From the NCBI GenBank assembly GCA_965644295.1, contig CBFFRP010000589.1, positions 1 to 31,864 of the forward strand: a DNA stretch of 31,864 nt, in the 5' to 3' direction. Positions within the stretch are counted from its first letter, which is position 1. Every line of letters begins with the position of its first letter. Shown piece by piece: positions 1,072-31,864 of the stretch. This DNA comes from Paraphysomonas bandaiensis. Taxonomy: Eukaryota; Protista; Chrysophyceae. The notes under the pieces were generated by a model. It was not told the origin of the DNA. It ran no database searches and saw only the letters and a program-made list of their open reading frames with translations. Position numbers and translations under genes: made by a program.

Positions 1072-2027
1072 TTAATATTGCAATGTTGCAAAACCGTTTT
1101 CAATCAAAATGACTTGATCAAAATAAGCGTATGTATCTATGCGTGCGGTCACAGTGGGGGCACCTGAGGAAAAACGAGGCATAAAAAATATATCGTCAGT
1201 GCTAGAATTATAACCCTGGTATACTGTTTCCATACCTGAGCTGCTGTAACTTTCTAAATCTAAACCTAAATAAAAGTTGGATGATGCTGCACACCCGTCA
1301 TAATCGGCTGCTGTCTCGGTACTAGCATCTGACGCTTGCATATCATAAGTATTTATATTAATGCTTGGTTCATGATTCAAATCGCTTACGCTTCCAATTG
1401 CTCTGATCAATTCGCCGAAAAATTCAGGAAGGCAACTAGGTGCTTTAGTTGGTACGGTCTTACTACCTAATCTAACACTGTATGACTCTAGACCGAAATG
1501 ATTTGATGACAGAGGGAAATAGGTGACTTCTCCAGCGTGTTTATCGCGCATACTGAAAAATAGAGATCTTAAAGAGTTATATTTAGCGGGTACGGGAACA
1601 CTAAGTTCAACGTTAGCGGCAATATTTCCAGTATGTGAATAATTTCTGTAATCTTGTACAACCCACCTTAAAGGTCCATTTGATGCCAAATTAATTTTAT
1701 TCATTGCGTCATCTGATAACTCCATAAAATTACAAACATATTCAACGTCATTAATAGCTATTGATGTTATGGCTTTATTGCAACAAATGCCCTCTAATGG
1801 ATTATTAACCAGAACTATTTCTAGACGTAAAGGCGCGCCGGTCATTGCAAACAGTGGAATATATTTATCACTGTAGCTTAAAAAATTCATTATTGGTACT
1901 GTATAATATCGTTTAGTTGTACTGCCCCCATTTGCAACTTGTGTGAATTCATTAAGTCTTTCACCAACAATTAAACCCTCGTTTGTGCTTGTTGCGCTGT
2001 TAACAATACTGAAACTTTCCGTTCCTG
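1072..2027 (-). pseudogene. PLV major capsid protein, C-terminal part (interrupted by the Gypsy element)
   Basis: Beta-rich jelly-roll-like sequence (KYIPLFAMTGAPLRLEIVL, YNSLRSLFFSMR, FYLGLDLESY, DTYAYFDQVILIENG). It joins in frame to 10943-11346 once the insertion and one TSD copy are removed. Confidence 0.85.
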
Positions 2028-3387
2028 TGTGACCACGTGGCATTTCACATGCCTCAGTCACGTGTCTATAGTAAGTGCAAAACTACTAACTACGGGATGA
2101 AGACAGAGACGATAGAAGTATCAGAAACATATCATTATTACGCTACAGATTACTGAAGAACTAGCACTAGGACTGGAGGTACAATTTCCCATAATCTGCC
2201 AACAGCTCTTCGCCGGCCGCAACTGCCCGAGTGGTCTGCACCCAGACCACGTCCAAGCCGGACTCATCTACTACAAATTCGCAGTTGAAGCGCCAGCCAG
2301 CAGCATGGTCAGAAGGATACACCGTGTTTATATACCTACCATGATTATGAGGCACCCGGGCCAAATAAGCTTGGGACCCCAGCGGCCAAAGGTAACCTAT
2401 GTCCCGAGTGTCCCGCTCCGCATCTATATAGAAGTCCTTAGCTATCTCAAGTATGTATGCTCCCCAGCTAGGACGGGAGGTATACACTTCACCGCTGTAG
2501 AGGCAGAAACGCAGTCCTGGCTCCAAATCCTGTAAGGAGAATAAACCTTGCTGTTCAGGCTTATCGCCCTGCGGGTTGGCAATGTTTAGGCCAGACCGGA
2601 CTTCCACATAGGGATTCACTGTCCCACACCTCTGGTAGAAGTCCAACACGCACTGGTAGACTTCACCTCTTGCATCATACGATGACGAGTGCAAGTAAGG
2701 AACAACTTTGCACAGTTGCTTATGTGCATCAAGTTGTCCCTCGGGGCATCGAACGGAGCGTTCCCACATACGCCTAGCAGCAGCCCTTTCACGGTAGGCA
2801 CACCGATACCGATTGGACCTACGTAATAGAGAGCCCCGTCCCCTACGATTGCGAGGTTTAGGCTTAGTGGAGCCCGCTGCTGGATCTGTAGTGGCAGACA
2901 TTGTTTATGCAGCAATGGATATGATGTATGTATCTGATGTGGACATTGGTTCTTAGTCTGAGATAGTAGATGTAGGAAAAGCATCATACGGTATGCTGCA
3001 CACTCACATACATGTTGGTCCATTGTAATACAGTAGCAGTACTCTGAATACGCAGTATTCAACGGCTAATTTACAAACTGGCGAGTGTGGTGTGTGGTGT
3101 CATCGCGAGTGTGGTGTGTTGTGCTTGTTCTATGTTGCATTGCTTTACAGCTCAGTGTTTTGTTAAGTGTTGTTCTGTTTGTACACTAGTGTTCTGACTT
3201 CACTGGAGGTGGGGTTTGCGCGGTGATTCTTGGAGGGAGTCACTAGTACAAGCTTGCAACGCTTGACATACTGTTTAGAGTAATAATCATCCTGTTCTCC
3301 TGCAATCAGACGTACATATAGCTCTGGTTAACTCATTGTGTTTGTTTCTGCTGCACAGCCTTGGTTATCAAACCTGGCTGTGTCATA
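2028..3387 (+). repeat. 5' LTR (1360 bp), termini TGTGAC...GTCATA
   Basis: Matches 9884-10942 apart from a 301-bp indel and 6 substitutions (visual alignment). Confidence 0.95.
2167..2901 (-). CDS. SET-domain protein (putative lysine methyltransferase), antisense within the 5' LTR
   Basis: SET motifs in canonical order: QGLFSLQDL, CLYSGEV, YIDA, GRYINT (cf. RFINH), NCEF, TTRAVAAGEELLADYG..Y (cf. GEELxxDY). Basic NLS-like N-terminus KPKPRNRRGRG. Confidence 0.88.
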   Translation of the reverse strand: MSATTDPAAGSTKPKPRNRRGRGSLLRRSNRYRCAYRERAAARRMWERSVRCPEGQLDAHKQLCKVVPYLHSSSYDARGEVYQCVLDFYQRCGTVNPYVEVRSGLNIANPQGDKPEQQGLFSLQDLEPGLRFCLYSGEVYTSRPSWGAYILEIAKDFYIDAERDTRDIGYLWPLGSQAYLARVPHNHGRYINTVYPSDHAAGWRFNCEFVVDESGLDVVWVQTTRAVAAGEELLADYGKLYLQS

Positions 3388-3914
3388 GTAATTAATTACT
3401 GAAAAAAGCAGATCAGCGCTGATAGTAATTGTTACACATACAACTCATTTTGCAATATTTGCAACACTTGTTATTCTTGCACATTAGAATACTGAGCTTG
3501 GCCTTTATTAGCCTCCTCGTATTCGAATAGTCCTTAGAGTCTATAGATTGCATACCAGTGCAAGCTTAGGGATTAAGGAGTGATATCTTGCAGTGTTTGA
3601 GAATACATATCCGTGAGCGCGGACTCCGTTAGACTGCGTCGTTAAGAGTGTACCTTGAACACTGCAACAAACTCAACATTTTGGAAAACTGCTCTTATCG
3701 CATTGACAACTGACCGTCTGCGAAATGAGTGGATACCTCAATTATTGAGTGGGTGAGATAGACCTTGTAAGAGACTTGCAATACAATTTTATCGCATAGA
3801 CAACTGACTGCCTGCGAAATACTTGTACAGCAATATCTACATAGTTTGATCTTGCGATAGCTCCAATAAACCTGAGCCCAAGCTGTCCTGTAATTAATAA
3901 GACCGCAATTCAAA

Positions 3915-5717
3915 ATGTCTACTCCTAGTGGCAAAAGGACCAGCAAGAAGCCGTCCACTGCTCCACGGCGTCCTAAACCAGTGGTACAGGAGGACTCACC
4001 AGATAAAATAGATGAGAGTCAATACGAAGAAGCGCCCATGATGCCTTCACCTTCTGCCCCAGCATCCTCAGCAACCCAACAGATTCTGGACTCAGTACAG
4101 GAGATCCAAGGCACCCTGGGACAAGTAGCCTTTGCGATATCCAACCTAGACAGTAGGGTACAAGCTCTGGAGAGTTCTAAGAGAGCAGATACACCTGATT
4201 CACCAGACACCCAGAGTGATGACACACCTGATTCATTCAGTAGCAAGGGCAGTAAAGCAAGTACCACACCCAGGGGAGTCACTAAGCGTGCTAAGAAAGA
4301 CCGACCAAAACCCCGTTATTCCACTTTAGGAGATCTGGCTACATTCAGGAGATTGCCAGAGAAGAAAGAGCAACTGAGTGAGGAGAGCTCCGACTCAGAG
4401 CTTGAGGAAGAGGCAGAAGAACATTTGGGGCGTCTTGCCAGTGTTTTTGGAGAGAAACGTCCAGGAAAGTTCTTCCGGAATTTGAAACGCAGCGCCAAGG
4501 TGGCCCAAGCTAAGACTGTCAATATAACTAGGCTTGAGAAGAAGTGTCACGTCAGGATTGAGACATTCAAACTTGGTAGAGTTTCAAGGGCGATCAAGGA
4601 GATTCTGGATTTCCAAGAAGAGGAAGAAACAGAAGTCCGCATCCAGAAAGTTTTATCTAGAAACCTGAAGGATCACTTGCGTTCCGTCTATGATATTCAA
4701 CACGCAGAATTAGCTAGCATGGACATATCTGACCTCATGAGAATCGTAGCCCTAGAGACGAAAGTTTTCAGCTGTGTTGGGTTTTACAACGAGCTGAAAG
4801 AATCTCTCAGCCATATGAAGGTCATGGAGTGGGATAATGTCAACGCTGTCAATTTTGAAGCCTTCTATTTTCAACAACTTCGTTTGATAGAATCCTTTAA
4901 AAGGATGTTGTCTATCATGTTGGAAAATGAAAGCAACAGGCGTTGGTGTCCACAGGCTGACGACAAGGAATACGGCCTTATTAGGCTATTTAAAACCCTG
5001 AACGACGTCACATATGTGAAATTTGTTCTAGGTTGTATTCCGAAGAAGAAGTTCGACTTTATGGAAGACTTCTTCAAACTATATACGGAGGTACTGTTAG
5101 ACCATTACCAGATCACGATTGCTTATAAACAGTTGCCCTTCAAAGCAACCGTGCAACATCAGGCGAAGTATGAGGAATACATGAAGCGCAAGCGTGAAAT
5201 GTTTTCTAGACCTAAGTCTGGAGTGGCAAAGAATTCCACTAGCACCCACTCTTCTACCAGGTTATTTAACATGGAAGAGGAACAGGCTTCTTTTTCTTCA
5301 AATGAATTTTCTCATGATGAAGAAGATTTATGGGATGCCTATGGGGATACATGGAAAAGCAACAACCACAGTACCGATGTTCCTACTGGCGGCAAACCTA
5401 ATGGCGAGCCAGCGACCGAAACTTCTGAAGAGAAAGATACATCCGACTCAGAAGGAGCTTTGCAAGCTATGGATGGCCAGAATCCATCTCATAAACCCAA
5501 ACAAGAGAAGTATGGGTGCATGAGAAAAATCATGTATGGCAAGTGCGACAAGAGTGATTGTCGTTATAGCCATAATCCTAGAGCTCTCGCCAATACCGCT
5601 TCGGAATTGGCTGAGAAATCCCAAGCTTATTTGAAGACCACTTCTTCAACTTCGGGGTCTCAGGATAAACCTCCTGCTATTTTAAGGAGAGATCGCTTCG
5701 GCGACTCTCGTCCTTGA
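3915..5717 (+). CDS. gag: Gag-like protein (600 aa) with coiled-coil segment and C-terminal CCCH zinc finger
   Basis: Long ORF between the 5' LTR and pol; C-x8-C-x4-C-x3-H motif CMRKIMYGKCDKSDCRYSH at 5517-5573. Assignment rests mainly on position. Confidence 0.75.
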   Translation: MSTPSGKRTSKKPSTAPRRPKPVVQEDSPDKIDESQYEEAPMMPSPSAPASSATQQILDSVQEIQGTLGQVAFAISNLDSRVQALESSKRADTPDSPDTQSDDTPDSFSSKGSKASTTPRGVTKRAKKDRPKPRYSTLGDLATFRRLPEKKEQLSEESSDSELEEEAEEHLGRLASVFGEKRPGKFFRNLKRSAKVAQAKTVNITRLEKKCHVRIETFKLGRVSRAIKEILDFQEEEETEVRIQKVLSRNLKDHLRSVYDIQHAELASMDISDLMRIVALETKVFSCVGFYNELKESLSHMKVMEWDNVNAVNFEAFYFQQLRLIESFKRMLSIMLENESNRRWCPQADDKEYGLIRLFKTLNDVTYVKFVLGCIPKKKFDFMEDFFKLYTEVLLDHYQITIAYKQLPFKATVQHQAKYEEYMKRKREMFSRPKSGVAKNSTSTHSSTRLFNMEEEQASFSSNEFSHDEEDLWDAYGDTWKSNNHSTDVPTGGKPNGEPATETSEEKDTSDSEGALQAMDGQNPSHKPKQEKYGCMRKIMYGKCDKSDCRYSHNPRALANTASELAEKSQAYLKTTSSTSGSQDKPPAILRRDRFGDSRP

Positions 5718-5732
5718 GATAAGGAGGTTAAC

Positions 5733-8700
5733 ATGATTGAGGACCTAGAAGAACATGTGATCAGTGTTTGTGATGGGAATGATGATTGTGATTATCTCCC
5801 AGAGGCTAAAACATTGAATACTACTTCTTCAAAGGTCCATTTCAAGGATGGAGCTAAGCTGTATGCTTCATATCCTTCAGCCAAGAAATTTTCATCAGCA
5901 CATACTGTAGGTAGAGTAATTATAGACAAGAAGTTCGGAGTGGAAGAATTAGTGAAAGTTTTATGTGACACAGGAGCCCTATCCGCTAACTACGTAGCAC
6001 GTGATCTTGTGGATAGATTGCGTACCAAGCTAGAACCTAGCAGGTTCTACAAGGTCAAACACCGTGTGGTTTTGGCAGACAGTAGAACCGTAAAGGATCT
6101 TGACGAAGGGGTTCGATTGAACTTAGTGTTTACCGATCCCAAGAGTCACACTTACCAGTACACTGGTGAGTTCATCGTGATCGACATGTCATCTAATGAC
6201 ATTATTTTGGGACTACCAGCCCTCACTGGGAAGCTATACCCTTTCATGTGTGCTGTCATGGAGCAGGCCCATGAGAATCATCTCGAAGATTCGGCTCAAG
6301 GGAACCATAATTTGAGTGCCCTACAAAATGAGGACATGGAATCCAGAGAGGAACACCGACGTCCCTGGAGTAAAGCGAATGATGCTATCGCTCCAGAAGA
6401 TAACGAGACTGAGTTACCCGTTCAATTCAAAGATGCTTTGACATTCCTCGGAAAGTCTAGAGAGGAAGCTCTTAACGACTACTATGAACAAATAGAAACT
6501 CACGTCAGTCAGGAGATGAAACAAGAGACCAACATTATGGATCTCTTATCTTCCAAAGCTGAGAAGGTATTCGTGCCTGATGAGTGGACAGGAGTCCGAG
6601 GTGTTGACCCTTTGACTCTTAAGTGGAAAGAAACTTTACCTGAAAGAATGAAACCCAGAGCCAGGCCGATCAACCCTAAGCTCTGGGAAGCATCCGAAAA
6701 GGAGTTCAGGAGACTATGTGGTTATTTTTACCAGAAGAGCAGATCTCCTTGGGCTTCATGCTTGGTGGTTGCTCCCAAGGCTACTCCACCTTATATCCGA
6801 TTCTGCGGGGATTATGTTAACATCAACAAGCACATGCAAGTGGGTAATTATACAATTCCCAATGTCAAGCATGAATTGGACAAGATCATCAATTTCCCAT
6901 TGTATATGGATATCGACTTGACCAACGCTTTCCATCAGATACCTCTAGCGGAAGAAACATCAGAGAGGCTTTCTATCCAGACGCCATGGGGCCAATATGC
7001 GCCAAAGTTCATGCCAGAAGGTATTGCGCCGGCTACTGGAATTCTGCAAGAGGTAGTCAGGGAAATATTTGAAGATTTTTCTGACTGGGCCATTGTAATA
7101 TTTGACAACATGTTGATATTGGCCAACGACCCTCAAGATGCGTATCAGAAATTTGAGAAAGTGATTGACAGATGCATCGAGAGGAATCTCAAACTGAAAA
7201 TGCCAAAGAGTTGGCTTGGATTTAGAAAAGTAGACTTCTTCGGATACGTATGCAGACACAAATCCTATGAAGTCAATCCTGAGAAGAAGGAAGCCCTAGG
7301 CAAAATCCCAATGCCTACCAACACCAAACAAGCGAGGTCTCTGCTTGGCAAGGGCGTGTTCTTTTCCAGTTTTACCCCTAGATATTCAGACTTGGTTGCT
7401 CATCTCACAGATTTGACCAAATCGAAATTCAATTGGGACAAGACTACGTGGCGGCACGATTATGAGGCTGAATATCGTCGCTTCATAAAAGGCCTGCAAG
7501 ATTCCTGCGAATTGTTCTACCCAGACTACAATTTGGAGTGGACACTGCGTACTGACGCTAGTGAGCTAGGAATCGGCTCGGTGCTTCTGCAGAAAAAGAT
7601 TCTCGCAGATGGAACAGAGCAGTTGCAACCCATTGCCTTCCTATCAAAGAAGTTTTCAGCTCAGGCTCAGAAATGGGCTACGATAGAGCAAGAAGCTTAT
7701 GGTATTTACTACAGTGTCAAGCACTTAGCGTACTATTTGATTGGGAAGCAGTTCACTATAGAGACTGACCACAATAATCTCTTGTGGATGGAGTCGTCTG
7801 AAGTACCTAAGATCACAAGATGGAGAATTTTCTTGCAATCTTTCAACTTCAGCATTAAACACATATCGGGTGCCAAGAATTGGTTAGCCGATTGGTTATC
7901 TCGGGAGCATCAAGTTGCGGCGTTGTCCGGTATATTCTTAGATGAAGACTATGCCGATGCCTACTTCCTTGGAGAGGACTGCACTGAGGATGAATTTTTT
8001 AACTTCTTGGGCAATTTTATGAACCCAGAAGACAGGGAAGTATCTCCTCATGCGCAAAGTTCAGTCACTCCCGAGGATGCCTTGCAACAAGTACATAATG
8101 CCCGAGTTGGACATCTCGGTGGGCGAGCCACTTGGATTCGACTTAATAAGCAATTCCCCGGCCATGGAATTCCTTACAAAGTAGTCGAAGACTTCATTGC
8201 GAAGTGTCCAAACTGTGTTAAGACTAGATTGGCGATGAAAGAAGCGCTGATCCCTATAGTCCGAAACCTTAAGCCTCCGAGCGCTCGGAGTGCTATTGGT
8301 ATTGATGCGGTAGAAATCACACCCCATGGTGCTGATGGATACACGCACATTAATGTCGTAGTCAACCTGTTCACCAAGTTAGTTTATCTTGAGCCAGTCA
8401 AAGGAGTGACTGCCCTCAACTTGGCAAACACGGTATGGAAGTATTGGAGTTACTACGGACACACTGATCTTATCATCTCAGATCAGGGTCCTGACCTAAC
8501 TTCCGATCTTTTCAAACAACTGACTGAATATATGGGCGTCCGACACACCTTCAGCATAGCCAACAGGCATGCTAATGGTTGTGAACGCATCATCGGTGAG
8601 GTGGTCCGACATTTGCGTGCCCTAGTATATGAAAACAGCAAGCGTGTAGAACGAAAGGATGTTTTTGAGGATCCCAGCTGGATACCCAGCGCTCAATACA

Positions 8701-9698
8701 TTCTGAATTCAGAAGTCTCATCCGAGACGGGGTACTCACCCTTTGAGCTCACTTTTGGCTCTAATGATCTGGAATATTTAACTATGAATATACAGACTTT
8801 GCCTGAGCGTGCACACGCCAGACTGACTGCTCTTAATGAACAGTTAGAAGGCCTACGGGCGGCTTCCAAAACTTACCAGCAGCAGTTAGCGAGTGAACGT
8901 GCTGGGGAGGGAGTTCACCCGGACAAGCAGAACCGATATCAACCGGGCGACTTCATTTTATTTGACAAAGGCGCCAAGGTTCATCCCAAGATGTCACATC
9001 GATACATGGGACCTTTTGTTGTTAAGACCCAGTACAAAAATGACATTGATTGTCAGCACCTTGCTACAGGGCAAGTGGTACGTGTTTCAGTGACAGACGT
9101 CAAACTGTTTCCAGGTGATAGAGAAACTGCGTACAGCATGGCTCTACGAGACCAGGATCAGCATGTCATTGACAAGATTCTCTACTATCGGGGTGACAGA
9201 GAGTCACGCTCCACTTTGACTTTTACTGTGAGATTTCAGGATGGTGATGTCAGAGAAGTGCCTTATAGCAAGGACCTTTTTGACTCAGTGCCTTACGCGG
9301 ACTTTTGTTCCAGCAAACGGTACCTCTACCACCTGATTTATCCAGCGGAGGGTGCCAAGAAATATATCTCGGACATCCGACGCCAGTCTATCACTCAGTT
9401 CAAACCCGGTGACCATGCATATGTTGACCTACGCATTTATGGCGACGTATGGTACGACGGACTGCAGTTACCAGACTCCCACTTACTGACCTATGTAGCT
9501 CCGATCCAGTTCACACACTGGTATCATCGAAGCTCTAGGAGAGTATTATCCGTCAAGGATCTTCTCACTCTCCGCACTTACCGTTATGACAACTACCTCG
9601 TGCATTGTTTCGTTCACCCTGAACTAGACACTAGCACTATGGTACTCGTCGACAAGGACTTGGCTACACGCTACCCTCAAGTCCTTGAGTCCGCTTAG
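5733..9698 (+). CDS. pol: Pol polyprotein: aspartic protease, reverse transcriptase, RNase H, integrase, chromodomain-like module
   Basis: PR LCDTGA. RT RFCGDY, DIDLTNAFHQI, MPEGI, IFDN. RH TDAS, EQEAYGI, TDHNNL, ADWLSR. IN H-x6-H...CPNC, IGID, ISDQG, CERII, GPF. Then HVIDKILYYRG...FTVRFQDG. Confidence 0.96.
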   Translation: MIEDLEEHVISVCDGNDDCDYLPEAKTLNTTSSKVHFKDGAKLYASYPSAKKFSSAHTVGRVIIDKKFGVEELVKVLCDTGALSANYVARDLVDRLRTKLEPSRFYKVKHRVVLADSRTVKDLDEGVRLNLVFTDPKSHTYQYTGEFIVIDMSSNDIILGLPALTGKLYPFMCAVMEQAHENHLEDSAQGNHNLSALQNEDMESREEHRRPWSKANDAIAPEDNETELPVQFKDALTFLGKSREEALNDYYEQIETHVSQEMKQETNIMDLLSSKAEKVFVPDEWTGVRGVDPLTLKWKETLPERMKPRARPINPKLWEASEKEFRRLCGYFYQKSRSPWASCLVVAPKATPPYIRFCGDYVNINKHMQVGNYTIPNVKHELDKIINFPLYMDIDLTNAFHQIPLAEETSERLSIQTPWGQYAPKFMPEGIAPATGILQEVVREIFEDFSDWAIVIFDNMLILANDPQDAYQKFEKVIDRCIERNLKLKMPKSWLGFRKVDFFGYVCRHKSYEVNPEKKEALGKIPMPTNTKQARSLLGKGVFFSSFTPRYSDLVAHLTDLTKSKFNWDKTTWRHDYEAEYRRFIKGLQDSCELFYPDYNLEWTLRTDASELGIGSVLLQKKILADGTEQLQPIAFLSKKFSAQAQKWATIEQEAYGIYYSVKHLAYYLIGKQFTIETDHNNLLWMESSEVPKITRWRIFLQSFNFSIKHISGAKNWLADWLSREHQVAALSGIFLDEDYADAYFLGEDCTEDEFFNFLGNFMNPEDREVSPHAQSSVTPEDALQQVHNARVGHLGGRATWIRLNKQFPGHGIPYKVVEDFIAKCPNCVKTRLAMKEALIPIVRNLKPPSARSAIGIDAVEITPHGADGYTHINVVVNLFTKLVYLEPVKGVTALNLANTVWKYWSYYGHTDLIISDQGPDLTSDLFKQLTEYMGVRHTFSIANRHANGCERIIGEVVRHLRALVYENSKRVERKDVFEDPSWIPSAQYILNSEVSSETGYSPFELTFGSNDLEYLTMNIQTLPERAHARLTALNEQLEGLRAASKTYQQQLASERAGEGVHPDKQNRYQPGDFILFDKGAKVHPKMSHRYMGPFVVKTQYKNDIDCQHLATGQVVRVSVTDVKLFPGDRETAYSMALRDQDQHVIDKILYYRGDRESRSTLTFTVRFQDGDVREVPYSKDLFDSVPYADFCSSKRYLYHLIYPAEGAKKYISDIRRQSITQFKPGDHAYVDLRIYGDVWYDGLQLPDSHLLTYVAPIQFTHWYHRSSRRVLSVKDLLTLRTYRYDNYLVHCFVHPELDTSTMVLVDKDLATRYPQVLESA

Positions 9699-9855
9699 AG
9701 CACGGGACCAATCAACTTACACGTGACCTTCCAACTCCAACGCTCCTCTGCTGCACCTTCGTTTTGATGGCTAATTTTTAGTTCCGTTGAAATTTGTGGG
9801 CCGCAGAGTGACGCCCGTCTTCATCATTTCGCATAATACTTATATCAAACAAACA

Positions 9856-9880
9856 AAAAAAAAAAAAAAGGGAGGCGGGG
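9856..9880 (+). other. Polypurine tract (plus-strand primer)
   Basis: A-run followed by GGGAGGCGGGG, 3 nt upstream of the 3' LTR start. Confidence 0.85.
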
Positions 9881-9883
9881 CAA

Positions 9884-10942
9884 TGTGACCACGTGGCATT
9901 TCACATGCCTCAGTCACGTGTCTATAGTAAGTGCAAAACTACTAACTACGGGATGAAGACAGAGACGATAGAAGTATCAGAAACATATCATTATTACGCT
10001 ACAGATTACTGAAGAACTAGCACTAGGACTGGAGGTACAATTTCCCATAATCTGCCAACAGCTCTTCGCCGGCCGCAACTGCCCGAGTGGTCTGCACCCA
10101 GACCACGTCCAAGCCGGACTCATCTACTACAAATTCGCAGTTGAAGCGCCAGCCAGCAGCATGGTCAGAAGGATACACCGTGTTTATATACCTACCATGA
10201 TTATGAGGCACCCGGGCCAAATAAGCTTGGGACCCCAGCGGCCAAAGGTAACCCATGTCCCGAGTGTCCCGCTCCGCATCTATATAGAAGTCCTTAGCCA
10301 TCTCAAGTATATATGCTCCCCAGCTGGGACGGGAGGTATACACTTCACCGCTGTAGAGGCAGAAACGCAGTCCTAGCTCCAAATCCTGTAAGGAGAATAA
10401 ACCTTGCTGTTCAGGCTTATCGCCCTGAGGGTTGGTGGATCTGTAGTGGCAGACATTGTTTATGCAGCAATGGATATGATGTATGTATCTGATGTGGACA
10501 TTGGTTCTTAGTCTGAGATAGTAGATGTAGGAAAAGCATCATACGGTATGCTGCACACTCACATACATGTTGGTCCATTGTAATACAGTAGCAGTACTCT
10601 GAATACGCAGTATTCAACGGCTAATTTACAAACTGGCGAGTGTGGTGTGTGGTGTCATCGCGAGTGTGGTGTGTTGTGCTTGTTCTATGTTGCATTGCTT
10701 TACAGCTCAGTGTTTTGTTAAGTGTTGTTCTGTTTGTACACTAGTGTTCTGACTTCACTGGAGGTGGGGTTTGCGCGGTGATTCTTGGAGGGAGTCACTA
10801 GTACAAGCTTGCAACGCTTGACATACTGTTTAGAGTAATAATCATCCTGTTCTCCTGCAATCAGACGTACATATAGCTCTGGTTAACTCATTGTGTTTGT
10901 TTCTGCTGCACAGCCTTGGTTATCAAACCTGGCTGTGTCATA
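9884..10942 (+). repeat. 3' LTR (1059 bp; lacks 301 bp present in the 5' LTR)
   Basis: Direct repeat of 2028-3387; junction GGTTGG|TGGATC at 10435/10436. Confidence 0.95.
10023..10456 (-). pseudogene. Internally deleted, frameshifted copy of the SET ORF in the 3' LTR
   Basis: Same C-terminal SET sequence as 2167-2901. The 301-bp deletion (not a multiple of 3) disconnects it from the original ATG. Confidence 0.82.
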
Positions 10943-11346
10943 CCTGATAAAATTGTGTGTTTGTTAATAAAAGAGTCGTTGGACTGTTGCAAAGCCATTA
11001 ACTGACCAACTAGATTATTATAATTCTGAATATCTGAAAGTAAAGTAGAGCCATGAAATACTCGCACTCTAGAAATTAGGGAATGAATACCGGCCTTATC
11101 CAGTCTTACGAATTCTGCTGTGGTCGCGGGGTTAGATGTTTCTGTGTTTACTATTAAGCTTAATTTTAAAAGTGAATCAGCGCCCGACATTACGAGATTA
11201 CGACCGGTAGGAACATTAATAATTATGGTCTCTCCTGCACCATATGGCCCCAAACCATTTTGTGGAGCTATATTATTCTGATAATTACGCGCATAACTTG
11301 AATTTATATTATTTGTATACAATACGTTTTTTGGTAATCCTGACAT
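10943..11346 (-). pseudogene. PLV major capsid protein, N-terminal part (135 aa)
   Basis: MSGLPKNVLY...IAPQNGLGPYGAGETIIINVP...IHSLISRVRVFHGSTLLSDIQNYN is typical of PLV MCP N-termini. The last 17 aa of the listed ORF are read-through into the LTR. Confidence 0.85.
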
Positions 11347-16567: not shown

Positions 16568-16795
16568 AGTCGGAGTATGAGCTCCGTCGCTCCTCTTCAT
16601 TCCATATCGTACTGTGTACTTATGTACTTATGTACTTGTACATAGGTACGATGCTGTCAGGTACACATACGATGGTGTCACTTCACGTACGATGGTTGAA
16701 GTTTTGTCTAGGTTGTTCTTTTCATATCTCACATAATTATAATACATATAATTAAGTTCGATTGCTTTCTCTTGCCTTCACATCATCTGCTTACT
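16568..16795 (+). repeat. Putative 5' LTR of the Copia element (~228 bp, AGT...ACT)
   Basis: Lies between the abrupt composition change at ~16568 and the PBS. No partner LTR in the window, so the boundaries are inferred. Confidence 0.45.
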
Positions 16796-16805
16796 TGGTA
16801 GCGGA
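16796..16805 (+). other. Primer-binding site, initiator tRNA-Met type
   Basis: TGGTAGCGGA (cf. yeast Ty1 PBS TGGTAGCGCC), ~30 nt upstream of the gag ATG at 16834. Confidence 0.6.
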
Positions 16806-16833
16806 TTCTTCACGTTCTACTTGTCTTTCACCG

Positions 16834-18545
16834 ATGCCTCTTCCACCTGCTAGTACTGCAATTCATGAGTTATCTGTCGCTGACTGTGACAGACTCTCTA
16901 CATACCTCGAGAATCTCTCCTTGATGGTCCAGAATTGGACGGTTCCCCAATACCCCGCTTCTATCAGTGACTTCCCTCACTTTGAACATCGTTTTAAGGA
17001 GTACCTTCGTCAGGCCAAGCTTCTTGATATTCTTACCCAGTCTTCTGTCAGGGTACCAGCGGCCCCAGATGACGCTTCAGAGGAGACCAAACTATTGATC
17101 ACTTGGCGACAAGCAATGTACGACGAAAAGAACAGTCTCGTCTACGCTTCTCTTCAGAAAGCCTTCATGGACAACGCTTCGGGTATTGCTCATATCGGAG
17201 ATGTCCAACCTGGGGATGGTTACACTGCTTGGCGTAATCTCATTGCTCATGTGGATCGTGCGAAGTCTTCTGGTGAGCATGCTGCAGACAGGAAAGCCTT
17301 CTACCATGATGCTCAGCGCTCCGATGAGGACATTGCAACCTTTGCTACACGACTCCGTACGACAGCCTTCAAGCAAGGTCTTGGTGAGGCTGATATGATT
17401 CATCAGCTATATTCTGGTTTTCGTGATCCGACAAGGGATCAGCGCGTCAAGAGTATCGTACAAGCACTGAAGGATGGCTTATCTTTTGATGCTCTCCTGG
17501 CTAAAATTGAGAGGATTCTAGCCGACCAGCCTTCCGTTGCCTTGGTTGATCCTAAAGTGCCACGGAAGAGTTACTGCAAATACTGTCATAAACATGTTGT
17601 TCATAAGCCGTCTGACTGTTATCGTAACCCTTCTAATCAGGATTCCTCTGCTGCCTCGAAACGTCAGAAATATCATCATGGTCCTCATTGCATTCTTTGT
17701 GGAAATCGTGGTCATTTTGCTCCACAATGTGCTCTCAAAGTTGCCGGTCAGCAGATTCCTCAAAATCCAGATGGTCGTCATGCCCAACCACAGCGCGCAG
17801 CCGGACATCAAGCCCCACCTCTTCCCAATAACCAAGGAGCTTTCAGGTCACCCCGTCGAGGTCCAGGTCGTCCTCCCAAACGTGGTGGTCGTAGTGGTCG
17901 TGGTCGTGGTGCAGGCCGTGGTGATACACGCTCGCGTCATGTTGCATTCGTCGATGACCCAGATACAATTCATACTTATGATCCAGAGTTTGATGGCTAT
18001 ACTCCAGATGATTCTATTTCCTCTACTATGCTTGCTAATGATTCTGATATTGATGCACATTACACTGCCATGATTACTTCTAATTCGTATGATGCTTATT
18101 ACACAGTATATGACATGTCATTCTCTACAACACCTGATACTACTCCTACACAACCTGATTTCATTGAAGTACATTTGGATAGTGCATGTTTTGATCATCT
18201 CACCAATTGCAAACATGTTTTGTCCTCATATACTCCCAATACAGATCATTATCTATATGTTGCAGATAAGCATCGACTCAGGGCTACTGGTGCTGGGAAC
18301 ATGTCCTTCTTCGGCAACGTCTCCTATTATCCAGAGCTCGGTAAAACTCTGTTGTCAGAAGGCCTTATGTTGGAGCAGGGTTGGCGTTTCAACTATTTGG
18401 ACAACGGCGACAAACTTGCCCTTTATACTCGTGATACAACTGTTCCTAATATTTTATTTAAATATAGGTATCGTTATTGGATAGCGCACTTACCGCTAAA
18501 TGTATCACCTGTGTCCTTTTCTGTGTCCAAAGATTCTGTGGCTAA
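16834..18545 (+). pseudogene. Copia Gag-protease (5' part of the interrupted polyprotein)
   Basis: GDGYTAWRNL Gag motif; knuckles CKYCHKHVVHKPSDC and CILCGNRGHFAPQC; RG-rich tract; protease VHLDSACFDHLT...ATGAGNM...YYPELGKTLLS. Confidence 0.85.
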
Positions 18546-18809
18546 AAGCAAACTTTTTTCAAACTTGGGAAAAATTTCTAAATTTGGGACTTTTTAAAAA
18601 TTTCATCATGAAAACCTCATGTTTATTGTTGATATAATTTAGACAGAGGTAATGAAGAATATTAATGTTGTATAATGATGACGATTCCAAGAAACCTTGT
18701 TTTTACATTTGGTCTTAACCACACTCATTAACCACAGTCAGTAACCACACTTATAAGAAGTAATATATATATTTACGTCCAAATCAATTAAATTTATTGT
18801 ATTACTCTA

Positions 18810-19145
18810 CTAAATAGTACTATCAGAGAGTGTGCTTGCATACACATACAAATCGTTTGCTAGAGTTTGACAATAACCAAAGTACTCAAAATCTTCGGAA
18901 TCGACATTCATTATATGACGATATGCGTTGACAGTGTTTTCTATTATACAACCAAACATAAACAAATAAATTATGCTCTCCCGCCTCACCCAAACGCCCA
19001 TTGCCACCATCCCTGTGTGGTCATACCCTCTGTTTGATTTGCTTGTTGTATTTGTCATAGGCATAAAACAGCTTGTAATATAGTCATCACGCACAGGAAT
19101 ACATATATGATGTCGAGGCCTTGGTTGTCCGCCTCGTATACGCAT
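18810..19145 (-). pseudogene. Possible C-terminal remnant of a DDE transposase
   Basis: W...IIYLFMFGCIIENTVNAYRH...YCQTLANDL resembles the C-terminal helices of piggyBac-like transposases; no catalytic core present. Confidence 0.3.
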
Positions 19146-19312
19146 TACTTAATACTGTATGTTGCTTCCCATCTTTCCTATGAGCGTGCACAACTATTTG
19201 CTTCTTTCTTTTGTTCTATACCCATTCCATTTTCCCCACATATCTACTCCGTGCTGCACCAATCGTGTCAACAACGCAGGAATTGCTTCGGATTAATAAT
19301 CCCTCTACGAAT

Positions 19313-19966
19313 ATGGCCCAAAATGGAGGAATTGCTTGGGTAATGGTAGAAAAAGAGACTGGTTTTGATAAGGTAGTATAATATATATTATTATGTTGTT
19401 TCAAAGTTACATTTTAAATGTTACTTACTAGCTATGGTTTATAGGCTCAGTGTCAATACCAATGGAAGAAGATGTCAAAAGACGATGAAGGTAAGAAGAA
19501 CTGCGTGCCTTTCAAAGAGAAGCAGCCTATTGTTGAAGATTTGGTGTCCGATGTAGTAGAGGAGGAGTGGAAAGTGGGAAGGGAGAATGTTCGCAATGTT
19601 CGCAGTGAGATACTGGATCAGCAGGAGAAGACGATTTTATCGTTGACGGAAATGGTGAGGCATCAACAGGAACAAATTGATGCCCTCATTGCCAAAGAAC
19701 GAGTTCGCCCTGCCGATACTTCTAAGCCGAACTGCTCGCGAAAGAGGAGCGTTCATGATGATGAAGATTCAATAACTTCCGAAGCCGACGAGGAGGACTA
19801 GAGAAGTAAGAAGAATAAATCAAGACGACGAAAGAGGAGAACGAAGGGATTGAAGAAATTTGTTGATGAAGGTACTCTTGTTATGCTTGCTCAACAAAAT
19901 TCAGTAATTGATGATAACTGCAAAATGAAAAAAGAAATTAACCGTTTGCGTTTCTTGCAATCATAA
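19313..19966 (+). pseudogene. Spliced Myb/SANT-like plus coiled-coil gene with an internal TAG
   Basis: A GT..AG intron at 19373-19444 joins MAQNGGIAWVMVEKETGFDK to AQCQYQWKKMSKDD... in frame. The frame continues past TAG (19799-19801) as RSKKNKSRRRKRR...INRLRFLQS*. Confidence 0.5.
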
Positions 19967-20189
19967 GTTTAATGAGTATTGTCTATTGTATTTTGCATGC
20001 AACAATAACAATAAAGTAATAAACTGGTTAAGAACCTAAAAACAGCTTGATAATATTACCTTACTTTTATCAACATCCAAGCTATTGTATATCCTTTTTT
20101 CATCTTAAAATATGTATAGTCAACTAGAAATCATTAATGAAAATATTTGGGAAAAATTTTTTCCCAAGTTTGAAAATAGTTTGCTTTAA

Positions 20190-20943
20190 GAATGTGTCTC
20201 ATTTGTCGTTGTCAATTATGCGTCCAACAGTTATTGAGTCGTTGTGTGATGGTGCAGATACAGATGGATTTGACTCTGGCGGTGATGTAGTCTTGTCCGA
20301 CAACCGTTTTCAGTTTGCCTCTTTTCAACATGTTTGTGATTTTGTGTATACGGACGGTTTTCAGTTTTCACAGTTGTCTGACCCGTATTTTCAGCACATG
20401 TCGACGTACGTAAATGTTGGTTTCCCTTTGGTACAGTCAATTGACCCTTCTATACATAAATGCATTAAGGCCTATTACAACAGCTGTCATGCTGTATACG
20501 CCCATTCTCATTATAGTGAGGCGAATTATTCAAATGATACAGCCCCCTCATTGGCAAGGCAGGCATATCAGTCTTATTTAAATGGTACAGCCCCCTCATT
20601 GGCAAGGCAGGCGTATCAATGTACAGCCCCCAATAAAAGGCAGGCTTCTTATTCTATTATTGCCCCCTCTACAAAAAGGCAGGCAACAATCGCCCCTTCT
20701 TCTAACAGGCAGGCGTCTTCTTCAACGCGTCGCGCGCGTAATGTGTACACAAATATTGTTGTCGATCGTAATTCTTGTCAAGATCAGACTCAATTATTGT
20801 CTAAAGCGATGTATGCTTTCTTAGTTCTTCATATTAAACTTGGTCACCTCTCGTACAACACATTGTACAGTGCACTTCGGGCAGGACATCTTCTCGGTTT
20901 TCCTTATCATTGGAAGAGTATTGATGTCACGCAACTCCCGCAT
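20190..20943 (+). pseudogene. Copia polyprotein continuation: repeat-containing linker and GAG-pre-integrase domain
   Basis: LHIKLGHLSYNTL (cf. WHxRLGH); the expected CxxC and rve core are missing after ...TQLPH. Confidence 0.75.
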
Positions 20944-21346
20944 ATGCACAAACCAGACTTGCGGGTTTGCTCCCAACAAAATATATAATAAGGTGTGAGT
21001 AAACGCTTATTATTACTGTTAAATCACCCAACACGGTCAACGATATCCGCTAGATAACGCCGCGCAGTATTCCCTCTAAGAATAAAGATCGCTGTTAAGA
21101 CAGTGTCAAGTAACTTAAAACAATGACATGCAAGGAATAACATATAGAATGGTACGCATCTACAGAATGAACCAAGTTCATTTTATATCACACACACCAC
21201 ACCGCATGCATTCTTGCATACACCGTGTATACCACACGTATTATGACAATAAAACAAAACTGAATAACAGCGTATGAAACTGAATAACTGCGCATAAAAC
21301 TGAAACTACGCATAAAACTGAAATAAAACCATTGTGATAAAACTGA

Positions 21347-24300
21347 AAAACTCGTACTTTTATGCTACTCAGCCGTTACAAAATATGGCTGTGTGCTATT
21401 GTGATAACATGTTTTTTGATGTTTCGTTTATGGTTCATATGAAAATCCACGTACAATTCGACTGTTGTTTCTGTATAGGGGAAATATGCTACTTTTAAAT
21501 CACTGTAGGATTGTATAGGAGCAATACATATAGGATTGTACAGTATAGCAGTAGTGTATGGGATTGTACAGTGCAGGATGAACCATATGTATATATATAT
21601 AGAATCTAGCTGTTATAGAACCATATCTATATATGAATACGATATACGTCATCCTGTCATTTAACCTCACAGTGAAGTAAGTAGAATACGATACAGTGCC
21701 ATGTGGTCATTTGAGGTCACAATGAAGTAAGTATAGTACGATGCAGTGTGCTGTGTATTATTGATGGCAATATATATCCAGCAATATATAAGAGGAGCCT
21801 CTGATACATAGTCCGTATGATCCTGAGGCATGAGTGTATAACTAGAGTGAAGAGCATTGTGTTTACGCTGAGAGTGTAAGGTGTGTATGTGTGTGTTGTG
21901 TTGCTTTATTATTGATTGATGAGGTGTGAATGATGGTATGATGTCCCCATAGTGAGATGGTCATATGTGGAGGTGCTAACTGTAGTTTACAGTACGGAAC
22001 TACTGCAGCATCCCTGAACATATATTATATATATGATATACCATTCATCCTGTCATTTGAGGTCACAATGAAGTAAGTATAGTACGATGCAGTGTGCTGT
22101 GTATTATTAATGGCATTATATATCCAGCAATATATAAGAGGAGTCTCTGATACATAGTCCGTATGATCCTGAGGCATGAGTGTATAACTAGAGTGAAGAG
22201 CATTGTGTTTACGCTGAGAGTGTAAGGTGTGTATGTGTGTATTGTGTTGCTTTATTATTGATTGATGAGGTGTGAATGATGGTATGATGTCCCCATTGTG
22301 AGATGGTCATATGTGGAGGTGCTAACTGTAGCTTACAGTACGGAACTACTGCAGCATCCCTGAACATATATTATATATATGATATACCATTCATCCTGTC
22401 ATTTGAGGTCACAATGAAGTAAGTATAGTACGATGCAGTGTGCTGTGTATTATTAATGGCATTATATATCCAGCAATATATAAGAGGAGTCTCTGATACA
22501 TAGTCCGTATGATCCTGAGGCATGAGTGTATAACTAGAGTGAAGAGCATTGTGTTTACGCTGAGAGTGTAAGGTGTGTATGTGTGTATTGTGTTGCTTTA
22601 TTATTGATTGATGAGGTGTGAATGATGGTATGATGTCCCCATAGTGAGATGGTCATATGTGGAGGTGCTAACTGTAGCTTACAGTACGGAACTACTGCAG
22701 CATCCCTGAACATATATTATATATATGATATACCGTTACTTTATTTGCAGCAGGGTTGTGAGTGTCAACTACAGCAGGATCATCAAGGTTCTCCACTGGG
22801 TCTTGCCCACCGTGTTTCCGCTTCTTTGGTAATGTGGTGTCTACAGAAATTTTTGCGAACAAGAGTTTAGCTGTTTGTACTGCCATTGGAAGTTTCAGTT
22901 TGAGAACATCTTTGGCTAGTCCAGTATGTTTCCTTGCCACTCCAGTCTCATCGACATCAAGAGCCACTTCACGTAACCCCTCAATGTCATTGATGAGTCT
23001 GGTCATAGTTCGGCAGCGGCTCAAATAGTCTCTCATTGAAGAATTTAGAATATTTCGTTCCTGCTGACCTTGCACTACCAAGCACAAGTCTTCCATCACG
23101 ATGATAGTAATTCAATTGAAATGTGAAATAGCTCAAATTGCTTAATACTGATACTGTGTTAACCGCTATAGTTATGGACACTTTTAGACATCAAGCTATG
23201 GCGATAACAGCACTAGCCTATAAATACACTGTACTACACAATACTGAGCTGTATAATACGGTACTGAACTGTATAATAGAATACTGATCTGTATAATAGA
23301 ATAATGTAGATTGTGGTTTACAATTAGCACGATTTCGACCGTTTACTAAAACTCGTACTTTTATGCTACTCAGCCGTTACAAAATATGGCTGTGTGCTAT
23401 TGTGATAACATGTTTTTTGATGTTTCGTTTATGGTTCATATGAAAATCCACGTACAATTCGACTGTTGTTTCTGTATAGGGGAAATATGCTACTTTTAAA
23501 TCACTGTAGGATTGTATAGGAGCAATACATATAGGATTGTACAGTATAGCAGTAGTGTATGGGATTGTACAGTGCAGGATGAACCATATGTATATATATA
23601 TAGAATCTAGCTGTTATAGAACCATATCTATATATGAATACGATATACGTCATCCTGTCATTTAACCTCACAGTGAAGTAAGTAGAATACGATACAGTGC
23701 CATGTGGTCATTTGAGGTCACAATGAAGTAAGTATAGTACGATGCAGTGTGCTGTGTATTATTGATGGCAATATATATCCAGCAATATATAAGAGGAGCC
23801 TCTGATACATAGTCCGTATGATCCTGAGGCATGAGTGTATAACTAGAGTGAAGAGCATTGTGTTTACGCTGAGAGTGTAAGGTGTGTATGTGTGTGTTGT
23901 GTTGCTTTATTATTGATTGATGAGGTGTGAATGATGGTATGATGTCCCCATAGTGAGATGATCATATGTGGAGGTGCTAACTGTAGTTTACAGTACGGAA
24001 CTACTGCAGCATCCCTGAACATATATTATATATATGATATACCATTCATCCTGTCATTTGAGGTCACAATGAAGTAAGTATAGTACGATGCAGTGTGCTG
24101 TGTATTATTAATGGCATTATATATCCAGCAATATATAAGAGGAGTCTCTGATACATAGTCCGTATGATCCTGAGGCATGAGTGTATAACTAGAGTGAAGA
24201 GCATTGTGTTTACGCTGAGAGTGTAAGGTGTGTATGTGTGTATTGTGTTGCTTTATTATTGATTGATGAGGTGTGAATGATGGTATGATGTCCCCATAGT

Positions 24301-30300: not shown

Positions 30301-31864
30301 ACTCGTACTTTTATGCTACTCAGCCGTTACAAAATATGGCTGTGTGCTATTGTGATAACATGTTTTTTGATGTTTCGTTTATGGTTCATATGAAAATCCA
30401 CGTACAATTCGACTGTTGTTTCTGTATAGGGGAAATATGCTACTTTTAAATCACTGTAGGATTGTATAGGAGCAATACATATAGGATTGTACAGTATAGC
30501 AGTAGTGTATGGGATTGTACAGTGCAGGATGAACCATATGTATATATATATAGAATCTAGCTGTTATAGAACCATATCTATATATGAATACGATATACGT
30601 CATCCTGTCATTTAACCTCACAGTGAAGTAAGTAGAATACGATACAGTGCCATGTGGTCATTTGAGGTCACAATGAAGTAAGTATAGTACGATGCAGTGT
30701 GCTGTGTATTATTGATGGCAATATATATCCAGCAATATATAAGAGGAGCCTCTGATACATAGTCCGTATGATCCTGAGGCATGAGTGTATAACTAGAGTG
30801 AAGAGCATTGTGTTTACGCTGAGAGTGTAAGGTGTGTATGTGTGTGTTGTGTTGCTTTATTATTGATTGATGAGGTGTGAATGATGGTATGATGTCCCCA
30901 TAGTGAGATGATCATATGTGGAGGTGCTAACTGTAGTTTACAGTACGGAACTACTGCAGCATCCCTGAACATATATTATATATATGATATACCATTCATC
31001 CTGTCATTTGAGGTCACAATGAAGTAAGTATAGTACGATGCAGTGTGCTGTGTATTATTAATGGCATTATATATCCAGCAATATATAAGAGGAGTCTCTG
31101 ATACATAGTCCGTATGATCCTGAGGCATGAGTGTATAACTAGAGTGAAGAGCATTGTGTTTACGCTGAGAGTGTAAGGTGTGTATGTGTGTATTGTGTTG
31201 CTTTATTATTGATTGATGAGGTGTGAATGATGGTATGATGTCCCCATAGTGAGATGGTCATATGTGGAGGTGCTAACTGTAGCTTACAGTACGGAACTAC
31301 TGCAGCATCCCTGAACATATATTATATATATGATATACCGTTACTTTATTTGCAGCAGGGTTGTGAGTGTCAACTACAGCAGGATCATCAAGGTTCTCCA
31401 CTGGGTCTTGCCCACCGTGTTTCCGCTTCTTTGGTAATGTGGTGTCTACAGAAATTTTTGCGAACAAGAGTTTAGCTGTTTGTACTGCCATTGGAAGTTT
31501 CAGTTTGAGAACATCTTTGGCTAGTCCAGTATGTTTCCTTGCCACTCCAGTCTCATCGACATCAAGAGCCACTTCACGTAACCCCTCAATGTCATTGATG
31601 AGTCTGGTCATAGTTCGGCAGCGGCTCAAATAGTCTCTCATTGAAGAATTTAGAATATTTCGTTCCTGCTGACCTTGCACTACCAAGCACAAGTCTTCCA
31701 TCACGATGATAGTAATTCAATTGAAATGTGAAATAGCTCAAATTGCTTAATACTGATACTGTGTTAACCGCTATAGTTATGGACACTTTTAGACATCAAG
31801 CTATGGCGATAACAGCACTAGCCTATAAATACACTGTACTACACAATACTGAGCTGTATAATAC
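21347..31864. repeat. Higher-order tandem array; at least 6 units (2001, 1655, 2001, 1655, 1639 and a truncated 1567 bp)
   Basis: Units start AAAACTCGTACTTTTATG at 21347, 23348, 25003, 27004, 28659 and 30298. They are nearly identical, and each holds 2 or 3 copies of a 346-bp subrepeat. Confidence 0.96.
22692..23099 (-). CDS. 135-aa ORF or gene fragment repeated in every array unit (also 24347, 26348, 28003, 29658, 31297)
   Basis: Protein-like composition in the more GC-rich part of the unit, with an NLS-like PKKRKH. The last ~13 codons run into the 346-bp subrepeat, which suggests truncation or splicing. Confidence 0.45.
   Translation of the reverse strand: MMEDLCLVVQGQQERNILNSSMRDYLSRCRTMTRLINDIEGLREVALDVDETGVARKHTGLAKDVLKLKLPMAVQTAKLLFAKISVDTTLPKKRKHGGQDPVENLDDPAVVDTHNPAANKVTVYHIYNICSGMLQ

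Follow-up and report, generated by a model that had tools for sequence, protein, structure and literature searches.

A SET-domain gene within the long terminal repeat of a Ty3/gypsy retrotransposon of Paraphysomonas bandaiensis and the chromo-like tail of its integrase

Several described mobile elements combine parts that are also met in the retrotransposon presented here, and the comparisons below refer to the covered passages of each cited source. Chromoviruses, e.g. MAGGY (PMC3350952, PMC3605345), share with it the gypsy gene order and a chromo-type fold placed after the GPY/F module of the integrase. EpiLTRs or DAM-LTRs (bioRxiv 10.64898/2026.05.21.726589), defined by the presence of DAM, DNMT and a chromodomain, are retrotransposons with long terminal repeats (LTRs) which, as here, join a chromodomain to a methyl-writing enzyme. 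Proto-Helentron-Pi of Phytophthora (PMC4067079) carries an intronless SET gene in a separate open reading frame (ORF), as here, so that SET cargo in transposons is already known, and the oomycete gypsy element Chronos (PMC5348765) likewise provides an integrase-chromodomain element in a protist. The element under study is a Ty3/gypsy retrotransposon (nt 2028–10942, forward strand) within contig CBFFRP010000589.1 of P. bandaiensis, whose 31,864 nucleotides constitute the window analysed. Its 5' LTR contains an intact gene for a SET-domain protein, in antisense orientation.

The protease, reverse transcriptase (RT), RNase H and integrase lie in this order between the LTRs, as in the chromovirus clade. 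In contrast with chromoviruses (PMC3350952, PMC3605345), whose chromodomains carry the Y-W-Y cage (group I) or a conserved Trp (group II), the element lacks both of these in its chromo-like domain, is predicted to possess an additional Tudor-like domain, and shows a 4-bp target duplication, TG...TA ends and an IFDN motif in the RT. EpiLTRs carry DNA adenine and cytosine methyltransferases, whereas the enzyme predicted here is a protein-lysine SET encoded by a separate antisense gene in the LTR. Pfam matched no DNA methyltransferase family to gag, to pol or to the ORF in the LTR (E ≤ 1), which places the element outside the EpiLTR definition; the term "SET" occurs 0 times in the main text of the EpiLTR preprint (bioRxiv 10.64898/2026.05.21.726589), whose supplements could list more domains. 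Proto-Helentron-Pi, on the contrary, belongs to the rolling-circle DNA transposons, and its Clr4-like SET is not in an LTR and is accompanied by neither integrase nor reader (PMC4067079). Chronos has a dual RNase H including an archaeal-type domain, and SET cargo is not mentioned in the covered passages of its description (PMC5348765); a single RNase H (Pol 573–704) is present here, about 78 residues ahead of the integrase zinc domain, which begins at residue 782.

DNA methyltransferases and chromodomains in retrotransposons, as well as a SET gene in a Helentron, were thus known before. The novelty lies in a SET gene carried by the LTR and recurring across lineages within a single gypsy family; no report of an LTR-encoded SET stood among the top matches listed in the literature covered, which excludes most subscription journals and the Repbase reports. 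Comparing natural sister elements that possess or lack SET would show directly whether retrotransposons alter histone marks and so evade silencing, and the SET proteins, being small and intronless, are easy to assay.

The reading we favour, which we hold to be evenly poised between probable and improbable, is that the SET protein modifies in trans the chromatin at copies of the element, counteracting silencing, with the integrase tail acting as an independent tether. The SET protein would be produced from its own short antisense messenger RNA, its basic N-terminus would confer nuclear and nucleosome binding, and the small residue at its Phe/Tyr switch would allow multiple methylation. Its substrate would be histones and its effect on the chromatin of the element's copies activating, probably opposing the silencing imposed by the host. 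The gene occupies an LTR slot which sister elements fill with other DNA, and the older, fixed tail (SH3, cage-less chromo and Tudor-like domains) would tether the intasome to a host protein or to DNA irrespective of the SET mark. The two functions are likely separate, since the SET cassette is optional among close relatives and the chromo-like fold of the tail is devoid of the usual methyl-lysine pocket.

The antisense SET gene

The intact gene (nt 2167–2901, reverse strand) codes for a protein of 244 aa, which was identified by PF00856 and by alignment with its family; the Pfam match passed narrowly, with 22.8 bits where 22.4 are required (E 1.2e-4). A basic N-terminal part, with 16 Lys or Arg in the first 60 residues, precedes the SET domain (aa 119–238), which carries Asn192, the catalytic Tyr237 and an Ala at the Phe/Tyr switch. 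The post-SET cysteines are absent and the domain is a minimal one, without pre- or post-SET zinc modules. Five close relatives were retrieved, and profile searching extended the family to 352 representatives at E ≤ 0.001, including 99 at E ≤ 1e-10, that is about 100 or more divergent proteins. Within an alignment of 72 sequences, chosen as near-full-length matches, Pfam SET was matched by 62 members (E ≤ 0.001) and PRDM2_PR by 22. Among the 71 relatives, Asn192 is kept in 69, Tyr237 in 68, Tyr135 in 67 and Glu232 in 70, and of the 51 long family members all but two share the basic N-terminal patch (49 of 51). The switch residue, two positions before the catalytic Tyr, is mostly Val, Ala, Ile or Leu in the family, while the same position is occupied by Tyr in SET8 and by Phe in G9a; a small residue at the Phe/Tyr switch permits multiple methylation. 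On these sequence features the gene is predicted to encode a lysine methyltransferase.

The family profile, when compared with the Protein Data Bank (PDB), matched G9a (E 9e-11), MLL, SET8, EZH2, PRDM and bacterial SETs, without any clear substrate class. Because the best matches cover several substrate classes, no histone site is indicated for the SET protein. This result, together with the minimal architecture of the domain, would also suit a methyltransferase that acts on proteins other than histones, helping particle assembly by modifying Gag or integrase of the element itself, or blocking restriction by modifying a defence protein of the host. We regard this as unlikely, although it fares best among the alternatives, since the conserved basic N-terminal helix fits chromatin binding and the pol ORFs are intact in sister elements lacking SET.

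As for transcripts, a transcriptome record of 915 nt contains the complete ORF of one SET relative, and contigs assembled from RNA runs of two studies span the SET ORF, such contigs indicating neither strand nor level.

The location of the antisense gene within the LTR implies two copies per element. The copy in the 3' LTR is reduced to a remnant ORF of 92 aa (nt 10023–10301, reverse strand) corresponding to the C-terminal part only, as a 301-bp deletion (nt 2580–2880 of the 5' copy) removed residues 8–108. A distinct 211-nt deletion form of SET was found in one DNA and one RNA run. Judging from its position the ORF would lie in U3, in which case the broken SET would be passed on to all new elements derived from this copy.

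The six differences between the two LTRs all fall at nt 2398–2572 (against nt 10254–10428), i.e. in 175 of 1059 bases, adjoining the deletion, a clustering reached in 133 of 200000 random draws. Two of the six are common alleles in the SET protein cluster. Such clustering of the differences may have arisen when copies recombined or underwent gene conversion, or may reflect an assembly that mixes copies.

The integrase tail

Downstream of the integrase core, an AlphaFold2 model of the tail (47 sequences; mean predicted local distance difference test, pLDDT, 89) displayed three small beta domains. Forty-six relatives cover the tail at 39–100% identity. The first is the SH3-like (GPY/F) domain (Pol ~1067–1127; nt 8931–9113, forward strand), with a GPF-type motif at Pol 1091–1097, which aligned with the foamy-virus integrase 3oym (Z 7.2, root-mean-square deviation, rmsd, 3.4, 67 aa). 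The second, a chromo-like domain (Pol 1144–1196; nt 9162–9320, forward strand), is made of three strands and a C-terminal helix. The third (Pol ~1217–1298; nt 9381–9626, forward strand) was modelled as a Tudor/Spindlin/KOW-like barrel.

That a chromodomain-like segment follows the GPF motif from nt 9162, in the same element as a SET gene, had been proposed in the original prediction, and both statements were borne out. All six rows spanning this domain among the top 50 of VIA-align were chromo-family chains, namely cpSRP43 (3ui2; Z 5.9, rmsd 1.7, 48 aa), the HP1 chromoshadow domains 8jzw (Z 5.8, rmsd 4.3) and 9cea (Z 5.7, rmsd 3.6), Chp1 (3g7l; Z 5.5, rmsd 2.9, 48 aa), and the Chp2 chromoshadow domain 6fto and Chd1 9n6k (both Z 5.5), the Z values being middling and tied. 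No Pfam chromo family was matched at E ≤ 1, and no PDB sequence match fell below E 0.67. The sequence pattern on which the segment had first been recognised was matched by 1 of 5000 Pol shuffles, a weak test because the pattern had been drawn from this very sequence.

The aromatic cage, which had been suspected to be degenerate, indeed reads His/Phe/Gly in this copy. Cage positions, placed from sequence, were counted in 125 partly redundant sequences (46 proteins and 79 loci). Position 1, His here, is His in 41 and aromatic in 84; position 2, Phe here, is Phe in 97, Tyr in 26 and Trp in none; and the third aromatic, replaced by Gly here, is found in 0 of 125 at residues 1169–1173. Residues on the side of the putative peptide groove are conserved, with D1140 in 125/125, Q1143 in 122/125 and D1181 in 122/125. 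In the covered passages, the cage of group I chromodomains is given as Y24/W45/Y48, and group II chromodomains are described as lacking the first and third aromatic and retaining the second, a Trp (PMC3350952, PMC3605345). The chromo-like domain fits neither description, because Trp and the third aromatic are both missing from all 125 sequences and the first position is often aromatic. Shadow domains are described as not being methyl readers (PMC3350952).

The third domain is, on its predicted model, a better reader candidate than the chromo-like one, if any coupling between SET and tail exists. It might read the mark written by SET, or an identical one of host origin, and thereby guide new insertions to chromatin bearing that mark, and its alignment with the methyl-lysine readers Spindlin-2B (5lug; Z 6.2, rmsd 2.9, 67 aa) and BAHCC1 Tudor (8ye8; Z 5.7, rmsd 2.7, 59 aa) points in this direction, as does a conserved cluster of aromatics (W1240 in 116/123, Y1254 in 122/123 and W1263 in 96/107, with further aromatic residues at 1236 and 1241). 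The Z values are, however, below 8, the KOW barrels of Spt5 align over the same range, the aromatics may belong to the core, and in a comparison by hand most of the Tudor cage positions are not aromatic here. As the domain is moreover retained in elements without SET, such a role appears improbable.

Among other structural matches, the top Foldseek hits of the tail (SETDB1 triple Tudor and MBT repeats) had rmsd values of 16–28 and reflect tandem barrels, as do its viral matches, which were not used as evidence. Atlas assigned the tail only to unnamed clusters under 0.9. With its predicted three-barrel tail and the IFDN motif of its RT, this gypsy lineage merits a description of its own.

Distribution of SET among relatives and its possible role

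A metagenome scan for relatives of the tail yielded 128 confirmed loci, 79 of which were kept. SET was scored in the 48 loci whose sequence extends 800 nt or more beyond pol, leaving out the 31 loci with less than 800 nt. SET-like genes occurred in six of these 48 informative loci, corresponding to 4 of 24 clusters at 90% identity. Locus L001 has an antisense SET after pol (Pfam E 4.8e-11) and was the sole locus found by the SET family profile, as well as the only one with an ORF recognised by Pfam SET among the locus ORFs tested. Antisense ORFs with SET motifs follow pol also in L031, L032, L069, L074 and L070; alignment with the SET family by hhalign gave 79% for L031, 85% for L032 and 90% for L074, and L069 and L070 were tied to L032 by blastp (L070, E 5e-8). 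In L001, L032, L069 and L074 a polypurine tract and a TG start separate pol from the ORF, which is therefore within the LTR; the same location is likely for L031.

L031, with SET, and L051, without it, match at about 89% at both LTR ends, and their LTR middle of about 1030 bp is unrelated. A replaced LTR middle was also seen between L032 and several SET-less sisters. In a tree of the tail (29 of the 79 loci and 18 of the 46 proteins, the proteins being unscored), at least four changes of SET state were counted among 30 scored rows, gain and loss not being separable. Sisters with and without SET differ at 3–5 of 51 chromo residues. The chromo domain is thus near-constant and SET patchy, the supposed reader being fixed and the supposed writer optional; the co-occurrence of the two across the family, which had been put forward as a check of their pairing, does not support it.

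Two further antisense ORFs were tried as SET genes and rejected, each reaching 0.2% in the profile comparison and neither matching Pfam or PHROGs. The one in L068 (nt 1655–2491, reverse strand; 279 aa) follows pol and contains Cys, His and Asp which, by eye, are spaced as in a papain-type protease; it is possibly another type of cargo. The other, in L038 (nt 6127–7011, reverse strand; 295 aa), has an acidic tract and is missing in the near-identical sister L034.

These observations bear on three other explanations. SET could be a passenger cassette, housed where the LTR tolerates inserts and maintained by selection because it serves itself or the host, not the element. The slot does hold unrelated sequence in sisters, the L038 and L068 ORFs are similarly placed, and deletion forms of SET are common; yet catalytic residues are kept among SET proteins only 24–50% identical, position and orientation recur in several lineages, and 10 of the 15 members listed for the nearest SET cluster cover the full 244 aa, all of which makes a mere passenger rather improbable. 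With a comparably low probability, the LTR of a widespread protist gypsy family would be an exchangeable slot for the element's own histone methyltransferases, acquired or swapped repeatedly, with the Tudor-like domain, and not the chromo-like one, reading the written mark; if true, a retrotransposon would mark chromatin itself and then be guided by that mark.

The writer-reader pair of the original prediction, in which the chromo-like domain would read the methyl-lysine made by SET and target silenced viral DNA, is the least probable of all and is hardly to be maintained: a chromo-like fold with conserved groove residues, aromatics at cage positions 1 and 2 in most relatives and the location of this copy in a likely viral capsid gene speak for it, but the cage lacks Trp and the third aromatic family-wide and has His at position 1 here, the structural matches include cpSRP43 and chromoshadow domains, SET (6/48) is patchy against a constant domain that is near-identical in the sisters, the element's own 3' SET is deleted, and targeting to silenced viral DNA had been drawn from a single insertion. 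Neither cpSRP43 nor chromoshadow domains are known to be methyl readers. The deletion in the 3' LTR and the third, Tudor-like domain had not been part of that prediction.

A trans-acting SET modifier with an independent tail thus remains the reading we favour, and several points weigh against it. The SET family departs from the usual Asn-His motif, its His being replaced (Thr in 40, Ser in 26 and Cys in 3 of 71 relatives); PR-type SETs are likewise devoid of this His. A structure model of the SET protein, built on 6 sequences, reached a pLDDT of 41.6, too poor for structure search. Most relatives have an aromatic residue at two of the three cage positions of the chromo-like domain. Some of the SET assignments are faint, L070 alone giving 0.7% against the SET family profile and L031 only E 0.04 by hmmsearch, and the calls of absence may hide SETs that are too divergent or spliced. 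All seven known SET contexts were reached via the tail and cover a minority of the SET relatives, while three scans aimed at SET loci, including viral contigs and prokaryote genomes, found none. Sisters without SET could also be served in trans by the SET of another element in their host. Finally, the anti-silencing direction of the effect, which we consider likely, is drawn from analogy.

Insertion site, element anatomy and surrounding DNA

The element is delimited by a 4-bp target-site duplication (nt 2024–2027, repeated at nt 10943–10946) and by its LTR pair. The empty site, joining nt 2023 to nt 10943 with four shared letters, was recovered in the RNA-labelled run X18 and also in the DNA runs X1, X10 and X14. 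According to run labels, the stretch is present in 20 sequencing runs (14 marine or seawater, one hydrocarbon metagenome and five coded organisms), and a marine protist is the likely host. Contig depth of the element was well above that of the flank in X1, X2, X10 and X14, which fits a multi-copy family and does not give copy numbers.

The insertion interrupts a gene on the reverse strand, whose C-terminal part (nt 1072–2027), assigned by Atlas (0.97–0.98), likely codes for a double-jelly-roll major capsid protein, and whose N-terminal part (nt 10947–11346) was recognised from the ORFs and the empty sites. The Atlas clusters of the capsid piece carry Capsid_N, Capsid_NCLDV or DJR-like annotation on 10–18% of members, and the recognition value of 1959, under the tool's 2300, makes this a lead only; no PDB sequence match was obtained for the piece. 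The interrupted gene adjoins a primase/helicase-like gene and a DUF5901 gene and is likely, on sequence grounds, the capsid gene of a Polinton-like endogenous virus. Viral-contig scans returned no relatives of the tail, SET, LTR end or capsid piece.

The element (42–50% GC) sits in a gene within DNA of 26–35% GC. A GC-richer retrotransposon nested in AT-rich protist viral DNA is likewise described for Ngaro in the endogenous virophages of Cafeteria (PMC8547959); Ngaro, however, is of the tyrosine-recombinase class, and its preference was shown over 80 copies, against one insertion here. One further insertion flank, in X10, is AT-rich (two contigs, 0.72 agreement) and is not evidence of a preference.

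The 5' LTR (nt 2028–3387, forward strand) is 1360 bp long with 48% GC, and the 3' LTR (nt 9884–10942, forward strand), lacking the 301 bp mentioned above and differing at six sites, is 1059 bp long and is preceded by a polypurine tract recognised from the sequence (nt 9855–9880, forward strand). The LTR ends, TG...TA with a 4-bp duplication, depart from TG...CA with 5 bp. No tRNA-type primer site follows the 5' LTR at nt 3388–3399, where a 12-bp AT-rich palindrome is located instead. No tRNA gene was found in the window, no complement of at least 7 nt to the primer-site region, as for self-priming, was found within the LTR, and the primer-site region showed no unusual fold (z 0.33).

The reading frames of gag and pol are open. 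The gag-like ORF upstream of pol (nt 3915–5717, forward strand; 600 aa) has a weak CCCH finger near its end (PF25542, E 0.0046, below the cut-off), and pol (nt 5733–9698, forward strand; 1321 aa) codes for a protease motif, RT, RNase H and integrase in Ty3/gypsy order. The two are in one frame (nt 5715–5735), split by a TGA and a further stop codon, TAA, with another ATG following 15 bases past gag. RT, RNase H and integrase score above or close to the Pfam cut-offs (integrase rve, 31.0 bits against 32.6), and the best PDB sequence match of the RT-RNase H region is the Ty3 RT (E 5.5e-44). The catalytic YxDD of the RT, aligned to YLDD of Ty3, reads IFDN (Pol 456–459, nt ~7098–7109). The change of the second Asp to Asn impairs other RTs; here it is found in 45 of 46 relatives and is a family-wide trait.

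Elsewhere in the window, a copia-like remnant borders on the viral region at nt 16600–21000 and is interrupted by DNA unrelated to it, its parts being a gag with Pol_BBD (nt 16834–18597) and a weak gag-pre-integrase (nt 20137–20988). From nt 21350 to nt 31864 extends a near-perfect tandem array of units of about 1655 or 2001 bp with 346-bp subrepeats, which holds a 134-aa ORF in six copies.

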